DNA of 25,013 bases from a virus (Duplodnaviria > Heunggongvirae > Uroviricota > Caudoviricetes): positions 1 through 25,013 of the IMG/VR virus record IMGVR_UViG_3300045988_007239; one strand, given 5' to 3'. The notes beneath the pieces are model-generated. The model had not been told where the DNA came from and made no database searches. It worked only from the letters and a program-made list of their open reading frames with translations. Positions within the stretch are counted from its first letter, which is position 1, and each line of letters begins with the position of its first letter. A program made the position numbers and the translations under genes. Positions 470-25,013 of this stretch are shown here, piece after piece.

Positions 470-2940
470 CAGAATCCCCCAACAGTAAGGCGAGGAATAA
501 CGGCAAGAACAGACAGCGGCAACGGGTCAAGCTGACGGATTTTTACACGTCCGTTTTTGCCCCAGTTACTGTCCAGTTTCACTTCTACTTTTCCGGTAGC
601 ATCATCAACAGGATCATCGTAGAACTCGAATTCACGCTGTGGATATTCGTACCATTTACCGCCGGGCGTAGTCGCCCAGATGCCGCGACTGGCATTCACA
701 ACCAGAGTAACGGACGGGATCACCTGTTTTTTGTCCAGCAGCGTTTCCTGTCCGTTAATGTTGATATCCAGTGTTTCGAATTCAGCAGTTATTGGCAGGC
801 CGATGTGCACTACAGCCCCCGGTGATTCCAGCGTGACGGCACCTCCGGAAACTACTTTCTGTGGTTCCACGTTCGCATCAGAGAGGATGTTTACGGTCTG
901 ACCTTCAAGATGAGACAAGCCGCCAAATGCCCGGCGCGCCATCTGCCAGTTCGTGGTGGCCACATTCCTGAGGGATGGCGGGACGTTCCTGTTAGCACGA
1001 ACCACTACAGCGGTGTTGCTGGTTACAGAAATAATGTCGCAACGTAATTCTTTTGACACTTCATCGCCAGTATCAGGATCAGTTCCGGTATAAGGGAACT
1101 GTAGTTGCGCACCGACATCACTACTGGTGAAGTACGCACCGCCAGAAATACTGATTGTATATTCCGCGCGGTAATCCCATTCGCCAGAACCACCAGTGAT
1201 GGTCATCGTTCTGTCAGACGTATTTCTTCCATCATAGCTAAGGCCAGAATCAACAAAGAAAGCATCTTCATCGCTGGTAAATAAACGGCTGGACAGTCGC
1301 TCGATGTATCTCACTGTTTGCCCGTTAACGGTTCGGTTAACGACGAAATACACCGCATCTTCATTTCCTTCGCTGATACTGCATGTGCTTTCATATTTTC
1401 CGGTACTGGATTGTGGTGCCCATGCAAAAACCTGCTGATCACGCAAATAGGTCATCACCAGTAATTTACCGTCATCACGAATGCAGAAGGCGCTGGAGTA
1501 AGGGACAATAGAGAAGCACCAGTCAACAATGCTGTGCTTCTGAAAAAGATGATTGGCAAGGATGGTCAGGTCGTTCCCCTGATAGCCGTCAACATCGAAT
1601 GAGTAGGCCAGATCACGGACAACGCTGCCTTTCTCCTGGACGAACAGAGCAATATTCGCCACGGCAATTGGCGGGACGTTGCTTGAGCCATTTGATCCCT
1701 GAGAGCTGAATGCAAATGATGATGGGGTTAACACTTTGTTCTGGTCGCCGGTGATGACGTACTCACCTCCGGAAGTCAGCGCCACCAGAGAACCAACATC
1801 AATCAGGTGGCGGATCTCATTAACCTGACGTCCGGCATAGGTGTAGATAATTCTGTCGTCATCCTGCGTAGGATTGCTTTTGCCAAAATCCTTATAATCC
1901 CCGGTACGGCTGGCCCAGATAGTCTGAGGAAACGCAGTCGATGCGGCGAAGTAAAGACGTTGTTGATAATAAACAACAGTGCCAGGATAACCATTAACAC
2001 TGTTCCAGGCATATTTAGCCCATTTATAGCTGGCATTATCCTCGCCCACGACCTGCGAAGGGATATAGGAAATCACCTCGGCAGTTGCAGTAGTTCCATT
2101 TGCAGCAGTGATACGGGCAATGCCAAAACCACTGTGCAGATATTCCCACTCAATGCCAGTATCATCATCACCGGATCCGCCCCAGCCATCCCATGATGTG
2201 CCTTCTGTATGCGAAGGGCGCAAAGTACCTGTTTTGCCTGCTGTAACGGCGCGATAGTAGTTACTGTCTGCACGGCGAATATCGCCAATCGACGTACTCT
2301 TACTGGTTTCCCATACCGGCACAGAATCCACTGCAGGCTGTTCCAGATAGAACAATTTGCCTACCTGCTCCGCGCCAAAAATAGAGGCGCTTGCCGTTAG
2401 CGTAATTGTCCCGGTGCTGGCGCTGGCATAAACCGTCACTGACTCGTCAATATTGATATCTTCAAATGGCCCGTTCTTCGTTACCACATCAACCAGTTGC
2501 CAGTTGTCATGCGCATAGCGGCGCAACTCTTTCGGCGGGTATGCCGGGTGAACCAGCGTAAGCACGTCGGCGCTTTGCGTAAATTTAATTCGGAACAGAT
2601 CGGCTTCAGTATATGGCGTGGCAATTTCATAAATAACATTGCTGCTGTTCAGCACCAACGCACCATCTTTGATAACGCGCATGTACTGGTGTCCGAACTC
2701 CAGAGCATAAGTCTGAACCGTCGAGAACTGGAACGGGATCAGGCGGCATTTCCGATTTGGGTATTTGGCGGCACCGACAAAACGCGTACCAGGTCGATTC
2801 TCAACTCCGCCATACTGCCGCACGATAAAGTTATCGCACTTGCGCAATGCCACCTGGTACTTCGCCATGTCGATACGACCGTACAACGACGGTCCAATCT
2901 CACCACCGGCAAAGCTGGGCTGGATCCAACTGATAGCCAT
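469..2940 (-). CDS. large tail structural protein, podovirus tail tubular protein B-like
   Basis: 823-aa ORF coupled to flanking genes in the head/tail operon; size and N-terminal GG-x-I-x-P pattern recall T7 gp12-type nozzle proteins (from memory, unverified). Confidence 0.55.
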   Translation of the reverse strand: MAISWIQPSFAGGEIGPSLYGRIDMAKYQVALRKCDNFIVRQYGGVENRPGTRFVGAAKYPNRKCRLIPFQFSTVQTYALEFGHQYMRVIKDGALVLNSSNVIYEIATPYTEADLFRIKFTQSADVLTLVHPAYPPKELRRYAHDNWQLVDVVTKNGPFEDINIDESVTVYASASTGTITLTASASIFGAEQVGKLFYLEQPAVDSVPVWETSKSTSIGDIRRADSNYYRAVTAGKTGTLRPSHTEGTSWDGWGGSGDDDTGIEWEYLHSGFGIARITAANGTTATAEVISYIPSQVVGEDNASYKWAKYAWNSVNGYPGTVVYYQQRLYFAASTAFPQTIWASRTGDYKDFGKSNPTQDDDRIIYTYAGRQVNEIRHLIDVGSLVALTSGGEYVITGDQNKVLTPSSFAFSSQGSNGSSNVPPIAVANIALFVQEKGSVVRDLAYSFDVDGYQGNDLTILANHLFQKHSIVDWCFSIVPYSSAFCIRDDGKLLVMTYLRDQQVFAWAPQSSTGKYESTCSISEGNEDAVYFVVNRTVNGQTVRYIERLSSRLFTSDEDAFFVDSGLSYDGRNTSDRTMTITGGSGEWDYRAEYTISISGGAYFTSSDVGAQLQFPYTGTDPDTGDEVSKELRCDIISVTSNTAVVVRANRNVPPSLRNVATTNWQMARRAFGGLSHLEGQTVNILSDANVEPQKVVSGGAVTLESPGAVVHIGLPITAEFETLDININGQETLLDKKQVIPSVTLVVNASRGIWATTPGGKWYEYPQREFEFYDDPVDDATGKVEVKLDSNWGKNGRVKIRQLDPLPLSVLAVIPRLTVGGF

Positions 2941-4702: not shown

Positions 4703-4717
4703 CTTCTTTCTCCATTA

Positions 4718-4737
4718 GTGGGTCTGTTACGACCCAC
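4718..4737 (-). other. stem-loop after major capsid gene (attenuator or RNA processing site)
   Basis: GTGGGTC-N6-GACCCAC perfect 7-bp inverted repeat between capsid stop and next RBS; no U-tract follows. Confidence 0.35.
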
Positions 4738-4753
4738 AGGTTAATAACAGGCG

Positions 4754-9073: not shown

Positions 9074-9150
9074 GTGGCATTAGCTCAGTTGGACAGAGCA
9101 ACCGCCTTCTAAGCGGTTGGTCGCAGGTTCGAATCCTGCATGCCGCGCCA
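9074..9150 (+). tRNA. tRNA-Arg (anticodon UCU)
   Basis: 77-nt cloverleaf folded by hand: acceptor gtggcat/atgccgc (one G-U), D-arm gctc..gagc, anticodon stem accgc/gcggt with loop cuUCUaa, T-arm gcagg-ttcgaat-cctgc, encoded CCA end. Confidence 0.9.
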
Positions 9151-14506: not shown

Positions 14507-15004
14507 TACGCACCTCCTTTGGCGTCAATATTTACAGCCTGGCAAGCCTCGTTGAGTACCCAGTCAACCGCGTCTTTCCATGCTCCGGTTTCGACTGGCG
14601 GATTCTCACACTTTACCTGTTCATAGAAACGCATTGCTTTAACTAGTCCTTCCGGCACTACCGACGCTGGCGGGGCAGCATAAAGCTCATGTATTCCATC
14701 AGGTAGCGAGTGACCTACATACTCACTGAACCCATCAACACACATGCATCCATCTTCAACAATGCATGACGCTACTGGCAAAGCCACCTCCCGTGCCTCC
14801 AGTTCTTCTGCCCACTCCCGAAGCCCCTTCAATCTCACCATTACGAGCTATCAGATCGCGACACAGTCTTTCGTTTCCATCCAGCAACGCCAGCACAACC
14901 TCCGGCGTAGCCGCAGCATGAAAAGCCTGTAGGTTCTGCCACGTCGTATCCCCCTTCGCGGCCTCTGCCACCTCGCGCAGTGCCTGATAGTTAATTTCGC
15001 TCAC
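14506..15004 (-). pseudogene. Ea22/Ead-like gene split across two frames
   Basis: 82-aa ORF (MSEINYQALRE...VVLALLD, Ea22-like N-terminus) ends in an out-of-frame-looking tail; the overlapping 111-aa ORF continues with coiled-coil and the YAAPPASVVP motif. Confidence 0.4.
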
Positions 15005-15308
15005 TGGCTGCCTCCTTTGCTGGGCTTTCTAACTTCTGAGTGGTTGTATCAAACTCAAACAACTTAACCACGTCATCAAACAGGACATAATCGCCATCAG
15101 AATCTTCAGTCATGTCAGCGCCACAATCCTGACCGAACGAGTCACAACCATCCATATCAAGTTCGTATCGCTTGAGTTTTGCGATATTTGATAAATTCAG
15201 CGCCAGTACAGCAAGGTCATAAACCTCATCAGCGGTATACCCGGCACCATGCCCATACATTTCAATACGGGATATGATTTCTTCTACACGTTGTTTTGTG
15301 ATCGTCAT
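14991..15308 (-). CDS. hypothetical acidic protein
   Basis: 105-aa ORF, closely packed in the nin-like region. Confidence 0.6.
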   Translation of the reverse strand: MTITKQRVEEIISRIEMYGHGAGYTADEVYDLAVLALNLSNIAKLKRYELDMDGCDSFGQDCGADMTEDSDGDYVLFDDVVKLFEFDTTTQKLESPAKEAASERN

Positions 15309-16238: not shown

Positions 16239-16313
16239 TTACCTCTAAGGTAATTAAAAACCACATAAGACACGAAATCAATAGAGTTTAGAATATTTTA
16301 TTACCTGATAGGT
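16239..16313. promoter_or_regulatory. two operator palindromes flanking a candidate promoter for the nin-like genes
   Basis: Perfect TTACC-tctaa-GGTAA (16239-16253) and TTACC-tgata-GGTAA (16299-16313); a TTGATT -35-like element lies between them on the - strand. Confidence 0.5.
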
Positions 16314-16352
16314 AATTGTTGAGGCGTAAAAAAATGCGCTATCGCGCTGGTA

Positions 16353-17129: not shown

Positions 17130-17931
17130 CCCACACCCCTTCTATCCAGTCAGTGTTATTCCAGTCAAGCTCATCGCTTTTCCCGGCGTTTTTTGATTTT
17201 CCCCTGATATGATTTACGTGCCTGGCGAATTTTTGTTCCCACTGAACCTGCGTGAACACTTTGCCCTCAGCCATCCAGTAATCCCGGAATGCAGCAAGTT
17301 CAGCAGGTGTAAATTCCGGTTCCGGCAGGGCCGTTCCCCACAGCGCAGCACGCCGTCGAAAATCCGGCGATGGATGCCAGCCATCGGTCATCGGAAATTT
17401 CCCAATAGGTTCACTCAGGCCATCCAGAAATGCAGGTTCTGCCACCTGCAACGGCGTACCGTTCGCTTCACTGGTCGGATCACTCTCGCGCGCGTGTGCT
17501 ATGTGTGGGGTTTTATATATATCTTCCTCTTCCTCTTCCTCTGGTAACTCCTTTTGTAACGCTGTTGGCGTTACTTTTTGCGTTACTCGTTTTCGATGCT
17601 CTGCCACTCTTCTATTCGTAAGTGCACGTTTTTTCGATGATTCTCCATTATGTCGCTCAAAGTTTGGAAGAATTAGTTTGCCGTCATGATAAGCAAGCCA
17701 TCCGACGCTAATGAGGGCGTCAGCAAATCCTGTAATAAAAGCGAGTCTATCAAGTACTCCTTTTGTAACGCTGCCAGCGTTACCGTCTATTGTTTGCTGG
17801 TCAGCCCATGCCCATATACGAACCAGCTTTCCAAGAACAGCATCTGGATCAATACCCAGAATTTCTGCTATCTGAAAAATTTCAGGTTTATCAGGAGTGA
17901 TAACTTCAACCTTAATCCAGCTGCTTGCCAT
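17101..17931 (-). CDS. replication initiator (replisome organiser N-domain, DnaT-like C-domain)
   Basis: Start set at ATG 17931 ([10 protein letters not shown]..., GAGGGG RBS); poly-Glu linker; C-terminal DnaT-like region; contains nucleotide-level iteron-like repeats. Confidence 0.75.
17543..17792. repeat. candidate replication origin: iteron-like repeats inside the initiator gene
   Basis: 18-bp direct repeat actccttttgtaacgctg at 17547-17564 and 17765-17782; each carries GTAACGC-N5-GCGTTAC (17556-17574, 17774-17792), plus an extra GCGTTAC at 17580-17586. Confidence 0.45.
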
Positions 17932-18124
17932 AGGTTTCCCCTCTTGCACTCTTTAGTGCACAAGCAAATTCATTACGATGGCGGTTGGCGCTATTCATTG
18001 CACATTCAACACATGTTCCGTTCAGAACATACCTTTCAGAGAGATGGCCGTGACGGCACCGCTTTCCTGTGAAATAGCGATTTAACCCGGCTTTTGCGGC
18101 CTCCATTCTGGTTACTATCTTCAA
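17912..18124 (-). CDS. small zinc-finger protein in the cII position
   Basis: C-x-H-x-H ... C-x2-C cluster; start uncertain (TTG at 18124 with GGGGG RBS, or ATG at 18106); overlaps start of the initiator gene. Confidence 0.4.
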
Positions 18125-18203
18125 TTTTTCCGCCCCCTTTTTGTTATTGATATTGGCTATTTTGCACAATTGGAAAATTTGATCAACCAGATTTGGTTTT
18201 TTA

Positions 18204-18218
18204 TTACCTTTGAGGTAC
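18204..18218. promoter_or_regulatory. imperfect operator palindrome
   Basis: TTACC-tttga-GGTAc, 9 of 10 specified bases; just downstream of the cro-like gene terminator. Confidence 0.3.
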
Positions 18219-18273: not shown

Positions 18274-18504
18274 TCATGAGTAGAAGAAGTATGCCAGTTC
18301 TGCTTTTGAGCGCAGCCATTGTCTTGTTTTACAGGCTTTAAAAAGCCCATTCATCAATACCTTACCTGGCATTTTGCGCTTACCTGTTAAGTGAGTCTGG
18401 ATATAGTGACTCGTCGTTCCGGCTTCCTGTGCGAAGGCTTCACGCTCATCCGGAGTAAGTGCAAGCCAGTGCTTTTTGAAATCGAAATGTCCGTTATCGC
18501 TCAT
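18274..18504 (-). CDS. Cro/YdaS-like HTH regulator
   Basis: 76-aa ORF divergent from the repressor gene; helix-turn-helix-like segment; classical cro position. Confidence 0.65.
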   Translation of the reverse strand: MSDNGHFDFKKHWLALTPDEREAFAQEAGTTSHYIQTHLTGKRKMPGKVLMNGLFKACKTRQWLRSKAELAYFFYS

Positions 18505-18540
18505 AGCTATTGCCTGATATTTATTTCAGATAATAAATAT

Positions 18541-18603
18541 TCACCCATAAGGTAACAAAAATCAAGGATAGTTACCTATGAGGTGCATTTACCTGTTGGG
18601 TAA
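18541..18603. promoter_or_regulatory. immunity-region operator cluster (OR-like) with divergent promoters
   Basis: Three sites: tcACC-cataa-GGTAA (18541-18555), TTACC-tatga-GGTgc (18572-18586), perfect TTACC-tgttg-GGTAA (18589-18603); between divergent cro-like and repressor genes. Confidence 0.55.
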
Positions 18604-18658
18604 TATTGCTTTAAATTGAATCATCTACTGATTCATATATGAGGCGATTTTCCAGAAA

Positions 18659-19243
18659 ATGAAAAGTATCCAGGACGTCCGCAGGCAAAATCTCAACGAC
18701 TTGATCGACCGTGAATTCAATGGTGTTCAGACGCGGATGGCAGAAAAACTTGGAACTCAGGCAAATCTGGTAAACCGCTGGGCTCTTGGCAAGAAGGTTA
18801 TCGGCGACCAGGTTGCACGAAAAATTGAAGCTGCCGCCAATAAACCCCGTAACTGGCTTGATATCGATCGCTCGCTTTCTCAGGAAGGTTTTCAGCCTGT
18901 CGGCCCGAGCGATATAGGTCAGCTGGCGGCTCACAACCTGGAACGCTGGATGAGCGAAAGCCGCGACCTTTCAACGCAGGGAAAACTACACCGCGCATCC
19001 GGCGTCGCCCAGGTGACAATCAGCCGCCTGTTAAACAATGAGGTCAGCGTTTCCATTTCCACCCTGGAGAATGTTGCATCCGCATTCGGGCGTCACGGCT
19101 ATGAATTACTGATTCACCCGCACGACCCTGCGACCATCAACTATGATCGCTCGCGCTACGCATTGTTACCCGAAACCGAGAAAGCAAAGATCGAAAGTTA
19201 CATTGAATTTGTCATCAACCAGAACGAAAAAAACAAACAATAA
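18659..19243 (+). CDS. phage repressor with two HTH (XRE-type) domains, no LexA-like peptidase domain
   Basis: 194 aa; two HTH-like segments (LGTQANLVNRWALGK and SGVAQVTISRLLNNEV); no Ser/Lys peptidase motif region; followed by a strong terminator. Confidence 0.75.
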   Translation: MKSIQDVRRQNLNDLIDREFNGVQTRMAEKLGTQANLVNRWALGKKVIGDQVARKIEAAANKPRNWLDIDRSLSQEGFQPVGPSDIGQLAAHNLERWMSESRDLSTQGKLHRASGVAQVTISRLLNNEVSVSISTLENVASAFGRHGYELLIHPHDPATINYDRSRYALLPETEKAKIESYIEFVINQNEKNKQ

Positions 19244-19263: not shown

Positions 19264-19288
19264 AAGCCGCCTTCTGGCGGCTTTTTTA
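19264..19288 (+). terminator. intrinsic terminator after repressor gene
   Basis: GCCGCC-ttct-GGCGGC stem followed by TTTTTT. Confidence 0.7.
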
Positions 19289-19300
19289 TTGCCTATTCGA

Positions 19301-19377
19301 TTACCTAATGGGTAATTTTTTTAACTCATATCTATTGACATCAAACCAGATACGCATAATTATTACCTCAACGGTAA
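19301..19377 (+). promoter_or_regulatory. pL-like promoter with two operators
   Basis: Perfect TTACC-taatg-GGTAA (19301-19315); TTGACA (19335-19340), 17-nt spacer, AATTAT; perfect TTACC-tcaac-GGTAA (19363-19377) at the predicted transcription start. Confidence 0.6.
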
Positions 19378-19396: not shown

Positions 19397-19549
19397 ATGC
19401 AGTGGAAAATCATCAACGGTTGGTACTGCGTTACTGCATGCGGATTCATGAGCTGGAAGTTCCGCACCTTACAGGAAGGCATTAAGTGGGCTTTCGTCAG
19501 CAAAGAAGCTCGCGATGTGGCCAACGATAACGAGATATGGGAGGGCTGA
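19397..19549 (+). CDS. small hydrophobic protein (50 aa), first gene of early-left operon
   Basis: Hand-translated MQWKIINGWYCVTACGFMSW...; GAGGT RBS 8 nt upstream; stop 2 nt before the next gene; below track cutoff. Confidence 0.35.
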   Translation: MQWKIINGWYCVTACGFMSWKFRTLQEGIKWAFVSKEARDVANDNEIWEG

Positions 19550-19551
19550 TA

Positions 19552-19851
19552 ATGAACGTTAATCAGCAGAAAAATCTTCAAAAAATCATGCTGGCATTCG
19601 ACAAGGACTACCGCCTGTCAGAACAGCTATATGACCGACAAGTTGAACTGATCGAGAGCATCCGGCTTCATCAACTGGCCTCAACTTTTGACGCTGTAAC
19701 AGGCAAAGGAGTTCGCCAGGAAGTGCTGGAGGCAGCTAAAGACAGCCCTGAGTTCGAAGAACTTATGGATGCCTACCGGCGCGAGGCAATAGCAATTATC
19801 GCCCGCTGGGATCTGGCGGATCGGATTGATGGGCAGAGGGAAGCGGCATGA
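19552..19851 (+). CDS. hypothetical protein (99 aa)
   Basis: Start set at ATG 19552 with GGGAGGG RBS, not the track's 19537; stop overlaps the exonuclease gene start. Confidence 0.6.
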   Translation: MNVNQQKNLQKIMLAFDKDYRLSEQLYDRQVELIESIRLHQLASTFDAVTGKGVRQEVLEAAKDSPEFEELMDAYRREAIAIIARWDLADRIDGQREAA

Positions 19852-20669
19852 AACCGGGAATTTATTTCGACATCAGCAACGAAGACTACCACGCCGGTGA
19901 CGGCGTGAGTAAGTCGCAACTGGACATGGTTGCCAAGAATCCGGCGCTTCTTAAATGGGTTCAGGCAGCACCAGAAGACGAAGAGAAAAAGTCTGCACTG
20001 GATATGGGAACCGCATTGCACTGTCTGCTTCTGGAGCCTGGAGAATTCGACAAACGCTTCATTGTTTCACCGAAGTTCGATCGTCGGACGAAACAAGGTA
20101 AAGCTGACGAAGAAGCATTTCTTCGTGATGTAGCGGATATGGGGATTACGGTACTTGATGCCGAGCAGTGGCGGAAACTGGAGCTGATGCGTGATAGCGC
20201 AATGGCTCACCCGGCGGCACGCTGGATGCTGGAAGCACCTGGTTACTGCGAAGCATCAATGTACTGGAATGATGAAGAGACTGGTGAGTTGTGCCGCATT
20301 CGTCCAGACAAATGGCTGAACGAGCACAACGTGATCGTCGACGTGAAAAAGGTTGCAGATATGGATCGTTTTGCACGCCACATCGAGGAATTCCGCTACC
20401 ACGTGCAGGACGCAATGTACCGCGAAGGAGCGATGAGGGTTACTGGTCAGTCGCATGGTTTTTTCTTTCTTGCCGTGAGCGAAAGCATTGATTGTGGTCG
20501 GTATCCGGTACGCGTGTTCGAGCTGGATGCGCCGGATGTCGATGCCGGGCACGCTCTGTTCCGCCGGGATCTGAATACCTATCACGAATGCCGCATCAAC
20601 GATGAATGGGGCGGCGTGGAAATTATTAAACGCCCTGACTGGGCACGTAAACAGGATATGTACGTATGA
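19848..20669 (+). CDS. recE: RecE-like exonuclease (exodeoxyribonuclease VIII catalytic domain only)
   Basis: 273 aa; GIYFDISNEDYHAG ... SKSQLD ... GTALHCLLLEPGEFDKRF ... CRIRPDK ... DVKK closely resembles the RecE C-terminal nuclease domain as I remember it. Confidence 0.8.
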   Translation: MKPGIYFDISNEDYHAGDGVSKSQLDMVAKNPALLKWVQAAPEDEEKKSALDMGTALHCLLLEPGEFDKRFIVSPKFDRRTKQGKADEEAFLRDVADMGITVLDAEQWRKLELMRDSAMAHPAARWMLEAPGYCEASMYWNDEETGELCRIRPDKWLNEHNVIVDVKKVADMDRFARHIEEFRYHVQDAMYREGAMRVTGQSHGFFFLAVSESIDCGRYPVRVFELDAPDVDAGHALFRRDLNTYHECRINDEWGGVEIIKRPDWARKQDMYV

Positions 20670-21547
20670 GCAATGATATCGCAATCACATCACAACCAGG
20701 CGCAACTGTAGGTACTGCTGCGGCAATCTTCAGCCCGGAGGGCATGAATCAACTGGTGCGTTTCGCGGAGTTGATGTCACAAAGCAAAGCGACTGTACCG
20801 AAACATCTTGAAGGCAAACCTGCCGATTGTCTGGCGGTGACCATGCAGGCGGCACAGTGGGGAATGAACCCTTTCGCCGTGGCGCAGAAAACGCATGTGG
20901 TAAACGGAACGTTAGGCTACGAAGCACAGTTGGTAAACGCGGTCGTATCCTCTTCCAGCCTGCTAGCGACACGCCTGAATTATCGCTGGAGCGGTGACTG
21001 GTCGAATGTTAACGGCAAAACAGATAAATCACCGAATCTGACGGTAACTGTGTCAGCAGTTCTTAAAGGAGAAGCAGAACCCCGTGAGCTTACCATCAGT
21101 ATGGCGCAAGCCGGAGTGCGTAACTCTCCATTGTGGGAACAGGATCCGCGCCAGCAGCTTGCCTATCTTTGCACGAAACGATGGGCTCGCCTGCACGCTC
21201 CTGATGTACTTCTCGGTGTTTACACCCCTGACGAATTACAGGAAACGGCACCGCGCGTTGAGCGAGACATTACTCCGCAAACGACTACTGCTGCGGCAAT
21301 GAACAGTCTGATCAACGCTAAACCAGTGAAAAAGCCTGATGAGCAAACGCGTAAAGCGGATAGCCGTGATCCAGAAGAAATGCTGATGGCCTTTACCAGC
21401 GCAGCGATGAATTACAGCACTGTCTCCGAACTGGATAAGGCTTACAAATACATTGCACAAAAACTTTCAGATGATGACGAACTGCTGGCAAAAGCCACCG
21501 ACGTTTACAGCGTTCGTCGGGAAGAATTAAACGAAACATCTATGTAA
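20666..21547 (+). CDS. single-strand annealing protein, RecT/Red-beta (Bet) family
   Basis: 293 aa; QWGMNPF ... ERDITP and C-terminal W-x-RL pattern resemble lambda Bet; coupled to the exonuclease gene. Confidence 0.75.
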   Translation: MSNDIAITSQPGATVGTAAAIFSPEGMNQLVRFAELMSQSKATVPKHLEGKPADCLAVTMQAAQWGMNPFAVAQKTHVVNGTLGYEAQLVNAVVSSSSLLATRLNYRWSGDWSNVNGKTDKSPNLTVTVSAVLKGEAEPRELTISMAQAGVRNSPLWEQDPRQQLAYLCTKRWARLHAPDVLLGVYTPDELQETAPRVERDITPQTTTAAAMNSLINAKPVKKPDEQTRKADSRDPEEMLMAFTSAAMNYSTVSELDKAYKYIAQKLSDDDELLAKATDVYSVRREELNETSM

Positions 21548-22254: not shown

Positions 22255-22897
22255 GAAATACACACTAATCTATGCAGATCCACCCTGGGTATACCGGGAC
22301 AAAGCCGCAGATGGTAATCGCGGTGCCGGTTTTAAATATCCGGTTATGAGTGTGCTGGATATCTGCCGCCTTCCTGTGTGGGATTTGGCCGATGAAAACT
22401 GTCTGTTGGCCATGTGGTGGGTGCCAACACAACCACTCGAAGCACTAAAAGTTGTTGAAGCCTGGGGATTCCGTCTGATGACGATGAAGGGCTTCACGTG
22501 GATAAAATGTGGTAGTCGACAACCAGATAAACTGGTTATGGGTATGGGACACATGACTCGCGCCAATAGTGAAGATTGCCTGTTTGCGGTAAAGGGAAAA
22601 CTACCTACGCGCATTAATGCAGGGATCGTTCAGTCATTTACCGCACCGCGGCTTGAGCATTCAAGAAAGCCAGATATCGTTCGTGAAAAACTTGTGCAAT
22701 TATTAGGCGATGTTTCTCGCATTGAACTGTTCGCCCGCCAGACGTCTCATGGCTTCGATGTTTGGGGTAATCAGTGCGAAGACCCGGCAGTGCAACTACA
22801 CCCTGGATACGCGTTGGATATCGGCGGATTAACAAATGCATTCAGCAATGCTCCGCTGTCACCAACAGACAACCAGGGGCGGGAGCGTGCAGCATGA
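22247..22897 (+). CDS. MT-A70 family N6-adenine DNA methyltransferase
   Basis: IYADPPW motif near N-terminus; start taken at ATG 22247 (track uses GTG 22235). Confidence 0.8.
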
Positions 22898-23553
22898 ACC
22901 TATATCAACGCATCAATGGCGCTGACTGGTGCAATATCTTCGTCGTCGGCGATCTGCATGGGTGCTACACGCTGCTGATGAACGAACTCGACAAAGTTTC
23001 ATTCGACCCGGCGCGCGATTTGCTTATTTCCGTTGGTGACCTTGTTGACCGCGGCGCTGAAAACGTCGAATGCCTGGATTTGATTACTATGCCGTGGTTC
23101 CGAGCTGTTCGTGGCAACCATGAGCAGATGATGCTGGATGCACTGGTCAACGGCGGAAGTTTCGGACATTGGATGTCAAACGGCGGTGGATGGTGGCACC
23201 AACTTGATTCTGAGCAGGATGTGCAACTCAAATACCTTCTGCCAAAGGTTACCAACCTCCCGATGATTATCGAACTGGTTACCGGCAATAAGAAGGTCGT
23301 CATCTGCCACGCAGACTACCCGCACAACGAATACGCATTCGATAAGCCAGTACCGGAAGAAATGGTGATATGGAATCGTGAGCGGGTTAGCGACGCGCAG
23401 GACGGTATTGTCTCGGAGATAACCGGTGCCGATTTGTTCATCTTCGGTCATACGCCAGCACATCACCCACTGGTGTATGCAAACCAAATGTACATCGACA
23501 CCGGCGCAGTGTTCTGCGGAAATCTGACGCTTACCAAAGTCCAGGAAGGATAG
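22894..23553 (+). CDS. Ser/Thr protein phosphatase (lambda PPase-like metallophosphatase)
   Basis: GDLHG, GDLVDRG and GNHE motifs; start at ATG 22894, overlapping the methyltransferase stop (ATGA); the track's N-terminal extension is rejected. Confidence 0.85.
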
Positions 23554-23555
23554 AA

Positions 23556-24812
23556 TTATTTATTACTGTCTTCCATCCACTTCTCAAACTTCGACGGGGA
23601 GAACGGAATCAGATCCGTATGCTCCCCGTTAATCCAGGAATCAATCATATCGGCCCACTGCTGCAACATGTAGGCGCGCTGTCTGGCGTATTCCGCTTTG
23701 TTATATACGGCGCGCACACCTTTCTGCTCGTGTGCCAGAGCCTTTTCAATCCAGTCTGAAGGATAACCAGCCTCATGCAACAATGTACTGGCTGTACGGC
23801 GCATATCATGTACAGTGAAATCCTGAATATGCTCACCATCTTCATTTATTATTTTCACCGTTCTGTCGATCAGAGAGTTCAGCGCGGCATTAGATAATGG
23901 CTTCCGGAAATTGTAACGACCAGGAACCAGATATTCACTTCCACCAGCGCACATCTGCAACCCGACTAATATATCCTGTGCCTGTTTAGGCAGGTAAATA
24001 ACGTGCGCCCGACCTCCCTTCATGCGGTCTGAAGGAATTGTCCATGTCCATTTTTTAAAATCTATTTCATCCCACGTTGCATTGGTTAATTCTCCCTTAC
24101 GAACCATGGTGATAAGCACCAGCTTTAAAGCCATTTTCATAGTGCCCATAGCACCAATGGCATCCAGCGTGCGGAAGAACAGGCCAATTTCTTCTGGTGT
24201 CAGTGTTCGCTCTCGTGGTTTAAATATGGCGATAGACGAAGGTTTAATGTCAGCCGCAGGATTAAACAAACCATGACCACGGTCATTGGCGTGACGGTAT
24301 ACGCTGCTGATGATCTCCCTGGCCTGTACTGCTGTTGCCCGACCACCGCGTTCGACAATCCGGTCACACAAATCACGAACCATCGATGTGGTAATTTCAG
24401 CCATCATTTTGTTGCCAAGAACCGGAAGTATGTCACGGTCGATCACCGCCTGCTTCATTGCGCGGGTACTGTCAGCCAGGATGACGTGTTTCATATAACT
24501 GTCGGTATGTACCGCAAACGTCTCGGCACCACGAATCTTTTTAATACCGTCACGTTTAGCCGCAGCCGGTGACTGGCCTGCTTTAAGCAGCTTCTTTGCA
24601 GCAATCAGTTCTTCTCGCGCTTCTGCCAAGCTGATACCGTCACGCCCATACTGCCCGATTACCAGTGTTTCGCGGCGACCGTTGATACGGTAGTCATAGC
24701 GAAACGAGACCGTGCCTGACGTAAGCACAGCTACATACAGCCCGTCACGATCGGAGACCTTGTACAGTTTGTCCTGCGGCTTGAGGTTTTTTAATTTTGT
24801 ATCGGTAAGCAC
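23556..24812 (-). CDS. int: tyrosine integrase (P4-type)
   Basis: 418 aa; arm-binding-like N-terminus, catalytic-domain motifs (HDMRRT, C-terminal Tyr region); GTG start at 24812; convergent with the early-left operon. Confidence 0.9.
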   Translation of the reverse strand: MLTDTKLKNLKPQDKLYKVSDRDGLYVAVLTSGTVSFRYDYRINGRRETLVIGQYGRDGISLAEAREELIAAKKLLKAGQSPAAAKRDGIKKIRGAETFAVHTDSYMKHVILADSTRAMKQAVIDRDILPVLGNKMMAEITTSMVRDLCDRIVERGGRATAVQAREIISSVYRHANDRGHGLFNPAADIKPSSIAIFKPRERTLTPEEIGLFFRTLDAIGAMGTMKMALKLVLITMVRKGELTNATWDEIDFKKWTWTIPSDRMKGGRAHVIYLPKQAQDILVGLQMCAGGSEYLVPGRYNFRKPLSNAALNSLIDRTVKIINEDGEHIQDFTVHDMRRTASTLLHEAGYPSDWIEKALAHEQKGVRAVYNKAEYARQRAYMLQQWADMIDSWINGEHTDLIPFSPSKFEKWMEDSNK

Positions 24813-24958: not shown

Positions 24959-25013
24959 AAATTAGTATCTGAATAGGAATGATTTGCTATGAGTTAGCTG
25001 TTAATCATTCCCA

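Follow-up and report, generated by a model that had tools for sequence, protein, structure and literature searches.

The window analysed here, a 25,013-nucleotide stretch of a viral genome (IMG/VR record IMGVR_UViG_3300045988_007239), very probably encodes the prophage repressor Rep of a phiV10-like Uetakevirus, a member of the SPC32H Rep family that would be non-cleavable and controlled by an antirepressor, Ant (rep; Table 1). The Rep/Ant system is already known, having been characterised genetically and structurally in 2013-2016, and the finding is correct but ordinary; the operator palindrome and the Bro-N/Ant fusion that accompany it in this group of phages may be less well described than the rest. 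The lytic switch formed by Rep and Ant in SPC32H was reportedly the subject of Kim and Ryu, 2013 (J Virol) and Kim et al., 2016 (PNAS), and SPC32H Rep is reportedly not cleaved.

The window derives from a phiV10-like Uetakevirus (an epsilon15-like temperate podovirus), in the orientation opposite to that of the phiV10 record, and is a mosaic relative of phiV10 and vB_EcoP_ZX5 (ZX5) with approximately 98% DNA identity over 85% of its length. Its repressor region is 97-99% identical to those of ZX5, phiV10, TL-2011b and HEMP4, and matches to these phages extend over 85-88% of the window. From the gene of an internal virion protein (phiV10 p16), the window runs through genes of the head, terminase, nin-like, replication, immunity and recombination functions to the integrase gene; the remaining virion genes, the tail-fibre gene, the O-antigen modification gene and the lysis cassette lie outside it. 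Contigs that encode an identical p16 protein, including the one designated L005, are approximately 98.7% identical to the window. Among 5426 complete E. coli genomes, 541 contain the rep region and 529 contain the ant region.

The end of the window (25003-25013, AATCATTCCCA) is the reverse complement of part of the attP core attgagtgggaatgatt, which has been reported for phiV10, epsilon15 and ZX5, with integration at the 3' end of guaA; thus, the window stops inside the attachment site. Between the genes of an MT-A70 methyltransferase and the integrase is an open reading frame for a calcineurin-like metallophosphoesterase (22774-23553, plus strand; Pfam Metallophos, E=2e-15), at the place occupied in phiV10 and ZX5 by a small DUF1382 gene. 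Positions 22900-23573 have no match in ZX5, and this stretch is a mosaic replacement. A tRNA-Arg gene (anticodon TCT; 9074-9150, plus strand) is located between the head operon and a Gp49-family gene, as it is in SPC32H and in the prophage of E. coli UTME-8.

Rep has the same amino-acid sequence as phiV10 gp40 and ZX5 ORF21 (100% identity). The GenBank record of phiV10 carries the note 'two helix-turn-helix motifs ... similar to putative repressor epsilon15p38' for the identical protein. Overexpression of ZX5 ORF21 abolished free phage and lowered transcripts of the endolysin by 99.99% and of the holin by 99.97% (PMC9782041); these data speak for repression by this exact protein. A phmmer search aligned residues 1-190 of the 194 in Rep with PDB entry 5D50_A, 'Repressor' (E=4e-42), and Rep also aligns with a 107-residue fragment in PDB 5D4Z. 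By their PDB titles, 5D4Z and 5D50 are the SPC32H repressor alone and in complex with the antirepressor Ant. SPC32H, also a Uetakevirus, has its genes in the order seen in the window, and rep and ant are both annotated in its record. With tblastn, Rep and SPC32H rep are 41.8% identical over 98% of the query, and identity is highest in the N-terminal domain (54%) and the C-terminal module (49%) and lower in the middle domain (33%) and the linker (22%), a pattern that would fit conserved DNA recognition together with conserved binding of Ant.

The initial annotation had described a repressor with two helix-turn-helix (HTH) domains and no autocleavage domain, and both parts of the description held. 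Pfam HTH_3 (PF01381) matched Rep in two stretches (E=1.2e-9; best at residues 106-147), and its score of 38.5 bits against a cut-off of 23 places Rep in the XRE/Cro-C1 HTH_3 family; a Cro/YdaS-type HTH was found at residues 21-61 with a score below Pfam's cut-off (PF15943, E=3e-4). PHROG repressor and regulator families matched the N-terminal 75 or so residues (1-76) and the C-terminal half separately. The AlphaFold2 model, built on an alignment of 23 homologues (mean pLDDT 78.7), is all-helical, with bundles at residues 4-59 and 83-151 and a C-terminal helix; in this model of the monomer, residues 157-162 are of low confidence and are followed by a helix at residues 172-193. Foldseek comparison of the model with the PDB returned chains of 5D50 ('Rep-Ant complex') and 5D4Z first, and then XRE-type HTH proteins.

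Inactivation of Rep by proteolysis, whether by cryptic RecA-stimulated self-cleavage or by a dedicated protease, is exceedingly improbable. Lambdoid CI proteins are by default assumed to work in this way, and no evidence in support of it was found here. Peptidase_S24 (PF00717) had no Pfam match in Rep even at E<=1 and was present in none of 86 database homologues, all of which are approximately 194 residues long and come from Enterobacteriaceae. The structural model is all-helical, and no LexA/CI C-terminal catalytic domain was among its Foldseek matches in the PDB. A self-cleaving repressor of the S24 type (LexA/CI-type, with a Ser-Lys dyad) was rejected on the combined results of Pfam, the model, Foldseek and the homologues; thus a cryptic S24 fold, which the initial annotation had named in advance as grounds for abandoning its proposal, was looked for by all four of these approaches and not found. 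Nor does a gene for an ImmA/IrrE-type metalloprotease adjoin rep among the open reading frames of the window or in the phiV10 record that was compared.

By homology, the two HTH-like domains of Rep differ in function. SPC32H Rep consists of an N-terminal DNA-binding domain, a middle dimerisation domain and a C-terminal domain (CAD/TetDloop) that tetramerises and binds Ant (PMC9986798). Given these roles, it is the dimerisation domain that gives the best HTH_3 match, and DNA would be read by the weaker HTH at the N-terminus. The second 'HTH' of Rep would accordingly be a dimerisation domain rather than the known DNA-binding domain, and a third module follows at approximately residues 152-194; on these two points the earlier wording of two HTH domains needs correction. 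The presumed recognition helix, NLVNRW, is common to this Rep and SPC32H Rep and nearly invariant across the family, with N36, R40 and W41 invariant. Rep has the three-module layout of the SPC32H type, and its oligomeric state may be expected, by analogy with the solved homologue, to be the same.

The gene rep is divergent from a gene for a 76-residue protein, from which it is separated by 154 bp, and lies between the replication and recombination operons in the gene order of phiV10 and SPC32H. The small gene is the first of the early replication operon and is syntenic with phiV10 p41 and SPC32H_042; its position suggests a Cro-like role. The region originally assigned to the repressor (18274-19243) does include rep in full, but it also spans the divergent cro-like gene and the operator region between the two. 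A terminator follows each gene, the one after rep being annotated in phiV10 also.

Table 1. Coordinates of rep, its domains, neighbouring features and putative operators in the window, and of related features in other genomes.
Feature	Record	Position	Strand	Basis
rep, 194-residue prophage repressor of the SPC32H Rep type (very probable)	window	18659-19243	+	ATG-started open reading frame; homology; Foldseek
N-terminal HTH, residues 1-70, predicted DNA-binding domain	window	18659-18868	+	PF15943; PHROG; 54% identity to SPC32H Rep
Second HTH_3-like domain, residues 89-151, equivalent to middle dimerisation domain of SPC32H Rep	window	18923-19111	+	PF01381; 5D4Z alignment
C-terminal module, residues 152-194, equivalent to tetramerisation/Ant-binding domain (CAD/TetDloop)	window	19112-19243	+	49% identity to SPC32H Rep
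cro-like gene, 76 residues, divergent from rep	window	18274-18504	-	Open reading frame; phrog_35 'transcriptional repressor', E=5.6e-13
Intrinsic terminator after rep	window	19264-19283	+	Terminator call; also annotated in phiV10
Terminator of cro-like gene	window	18252-18233	-	
Three putative Rep operators, rep/cro intergenic region	window	18541-18555, 18572-18586, 18589-18603	.	Motif search; inverted repeats
Early promoter-like sequence TTGACA-17-AATTAT	window	19335-19363	+	Promoter scan
Operator-like site, 1 mismatch, downstream of terminator of cro-like gene	window	18204-18218	.	Motif search
Second pair of perfect palindromes, 62 bp apart, between replication P gene and DUF1064 gene	window	16239-16315	.	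Motif search
Palindrome sites (15 bp)	window	8737, 11863, 11881, 16239, 16301, 18204, 18541, 18572, 18589, 19301, 19363, 24855		
Palindrome beside ant	ZX5 (L003)	2421-2437		
Palindrome beside ant	L005	20223-20239		
Palindrome beside ant	phiV10 (L001)	20877-20891		
Palindrome beside ant	L002	20013-20027		
Ant homologue	ZX5 (L003)	2089-2346	-	
Ant homologue	L005	19892-20149	-	
Bro-N protein (ORF4 in ZX5)	ZX5 (L003)	1078-1773	-	
Bro-N protein (ORF4 in ZX5)	L005	18881-19576	-	
Bro-N protein p23	phiV10 (L001)	19646-20230	-	

A family of palindromes, TTACC-N5-GGTAA, was noted around rep and elsewhere in the window. Eleven copies with at most one mismatch are present where 0.38 would be expected (about 30-fold enrichment), and a twelfth copy has two mismatches. 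All 12 are intergenic, in a window of which 9.4% is intergenic (p approximately 5e-12 for the 11 best sites). The three copies between rep and the cro-like gene overlap a promoter-like site of the latter (18558-18530, minus strand, from the promoter scan). Just past the rep terminator, two perfect palindromes 62 bp apart (19301-19315 and 19363-19377) bracket the strong early promoter-like sequence that heads the operon of recombination and excision-side genes, and single palindromes precede the head operon, terS and int. In phiV10 and SPC32H the palindrome occurs at the same positions with the same spacings of 62 bp and 17/30 bp, and also beside ant and before the lysis cassette. When the relatives are included, few transcription units lack the palindrome at their head; those that have it include the early, late, lysis, tail-fibre and int units.

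These palindromes are probably Rep operators spread over the genome, judging from their sequence and arrangement. The 62-bp pairs at two promoters, kept in three diverged phages, would suit a single tetramer bridging both sites. It is possible, if doubtful, that Rep silences the whole prophage directly and is more than a local PL/PR switch. In relatives, a copy of the palindrome (ATTACCTTTCAGGTAAT in ZX5) lies between the tail-fibre gene and ant, with the LexA box of the latter approximately 35-40 bp downstream, and Rep may act on the promoter of ant or of the tail-fibre gene too.

The initial annotation had proposed that the repressor is inactivated by a separate antirepressor, encoded either outside the window or by one of its small hypothetical proteins. 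The full-length homology to SPC32H Rep, which in the literature is inactivated by Ant, supports the proposal as a whole, and the evidence from relatives favours the first location. In SPC32H, ant encodes 86 residues and is divergent from, and upstream of, the tailspike gene. At the same position in phiV10 is p24 ('hypothetical'), which shares 88% identity with SPC32H Ant and for which PDB 5D50_E, 'Anti-repressor protein', is a match with E=2.9e-46. An 85-residue Ant homologue and a LexA box are found beside the tail-fibre gene in all four relatives examined (phiV10, ZX5, the E. coli UTME-8 prophage and contig L005), to the left of the part that corresponds to the window and approximately 9 kb past its left end. 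In phiV10, the near-consensus box TACTGTGTATTTATACAGTT, approximately 20 bp upstream of the ant start, is the only strong LexA-box candidate in the genome; the gene is preceded by TACTGTATAAATATACAGTT in ZX5 and contig L005 and by TACTGTATATTTGTACAGTT in the UTME-8 prophage. The one PHROG family matched by Ant is its own, phrog_450, apart from a weak match to the C-terminal part of a profile labelled antirepressor. From these relatives, we infer that the source genome of the window carries ant. Binding of Ant by this Rep would follow from analogy with the SPC32H pair; the two Rep proteins share only 42% identity, falling to 33% in the middle domain. Exposure to a DNA-damaging microcin induced prophages of the phiV10 species 21- to 47-fold (bioRxiv 10.64898/2026.05.26.727859).

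The second location, a small hypothetical protein of the window, is highly improbable. The window does contain many small open reading frames of no known function (for example, 19397-19549, 19537-19851, 17912-18169 and 14991-15308), but no antirepressor family was found among the 25 open reading frames scanned against PHROG and Pfam, and a fully adequate homologue from a known system is located elsewhere in the relatives. Neither Ant-like nor Bro-N-like sequence was detected in the window by tblastn with SPC32H Ant, phiV10 p24 and p23 (best E=0.3), and an Ant-domain profile HMM of six sequences gave a best E of 0.8 against all six-frame pieces of the window, in agreement with the earlier remark that no antirepressor is recognisable there. 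No credible LexA box was found either. The pattern CTGT-N8-ACAG occurs in the window at two sites, 4724 and 9266, and both were rejected as LexA boxes: the former is the stem of a hairpin, and the latter is GC-rich and has neither TACTG/CAGTA flanks nor an AT-rich core. With a heterology-index matrix of E. coli SOS boxes that is approximate only, the best score in the window was 13.7, compared to 3.7 for the phiV10 ant box. The hairpin responsible for the spurious match (GTGGGTC-tgtta-GACCCAC, 4716-4741) separates the major capsid gene from the head gene that follows it, where it may serve as an attenuating stem-loop.

A Bro-N protein is encoded downstream of ant in E. coli relatives of the window. 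In the ZX5 paper this protein, ORF4, was named 'anti-repressor' (PMC9782041), and the true Ant homologue of ZX5 was left as a hypothetical protein. Over its C-terminal 75 residues, ORF4 shares 42% identity with Ant, and the two proteins have phrog_450 as a common match; therefore, ORF4 is a Bro-N/Ant-domain fusion, and ZX5-type phages, having a stand-alone Ant as well, possess two Ant-domain genes in tandem. In phiV10 p23, only the first 35 or so residues of the Ant-like domain match (148-181), and this domain appears truncated relative to that of ZX5. Overexpression of ORF4 decreased lysogens approximately 1000-fold and rep transcripts by 75% (PMC9782041), and the Ant-like domain, by which the Bro-N protein could serve as a second Ant, may explain this mild pro-lytic effect. 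It is nevertheless improbable that the decisive antirepressor is the Bro-N protein rather than the small Ant: SPC32H has no Bro-N gene and its small Ant is the one annotated as antirepressor, the Ant-like part is truncated in phiV10, and the Bro-N gene follows ant without a LexA box of its own. It too lies outside the window.

The small Ant is thus the preferred antirepressor, and a mechanism can be proposed on the model of SPC32H. The N-terminal HTH of Rep would bind palindromes of 15-17 bp, (A)TTACC-N5-GGTAA(T), three of them between rep and the cro-like gene and others in pairs flanking early promoters. As in the solved homologue, the second HTH-like domain would dimerise Rep, and the short C-terminal module would build the DNA-binding tetramer. 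SPC32H Rep is a tetramer on DNA, and tetrameric Ant splits it into dimers (PMC9638917). In Salmonella prophages of this kind, Ant is made after self-cleavage of LexA and inhibits the repressor by protein-protein contact (PMC7380047), and SPC32H Rep is described as inactivated by Ant, not by repressor cleavage (secondary citations in PMC7380047 and PMC9638917). The Rep of the window would likewise be incapable of self-cleavage. DNA damage would inactivate LexA of the host and so derepress ant, an 85-residue gene with a LexA box, next to the tail-fibre gene and outside the window; Ant would then bind the C-terminal region of Rep, the tetramer would be broken and Rep would leave the DNA.

The predicted switch resembles that of SPC32H in genus, in gene order and in having a full-length, three-module Rep homologue, as well as in the 88% identity of Ant in relatives, the LexA box over the ant promoter region, and the same TTACC-N5-GGTAA palindromes at the same genome positions. 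It differs in that Rep is only 42% identical, ant is not inside the window, and E. coli relatives have the Bro-N/Ant-domain fusion gene downstream of ant. Coliphage 186, with CI and Tum, and the Gifsy/Fels-2 prophages of Salmonella also pair a non-cleavable repressor with a small antirepressor that is silenced by LexA and expressed in the SOS response, although no sequence relationship to them was detected and it is Ant of SPC32H that has been reported to break a repressor tetramer. With lambda CI, P22 C2 and LexA, Rep shares an N-terminal HTH DNA-binding domain, and the locus has the divergent rep/cro arrangement and multiple operators; unlike these proteins, Rep has no S24 domain, and its C-terminal two-thirds consist of the HTH-like dimerisation domain and the tetramerisation module.

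The analysis confirms the SPC32H-type Rep/Ant switch in phiV10-type prophages, which are present in approximately 10% of complete E. coli genomes, and adds little to what was known of it. Automated annotation labels Rep as an 'HTH domain protein' and Ant as a 'hypothetical protein', neither of which is informative, and the 85-residue open reading frame beside the tail-fibre gene in these prophages should be called ant. The dispersed operator motif is a possible handle for the engineering of reporter phages based on phiV10. If the palindrome that abuts the ant promoter region is indeed an operator, ant would be under a double lock of Rep and LexA, with positive feedback on induction.
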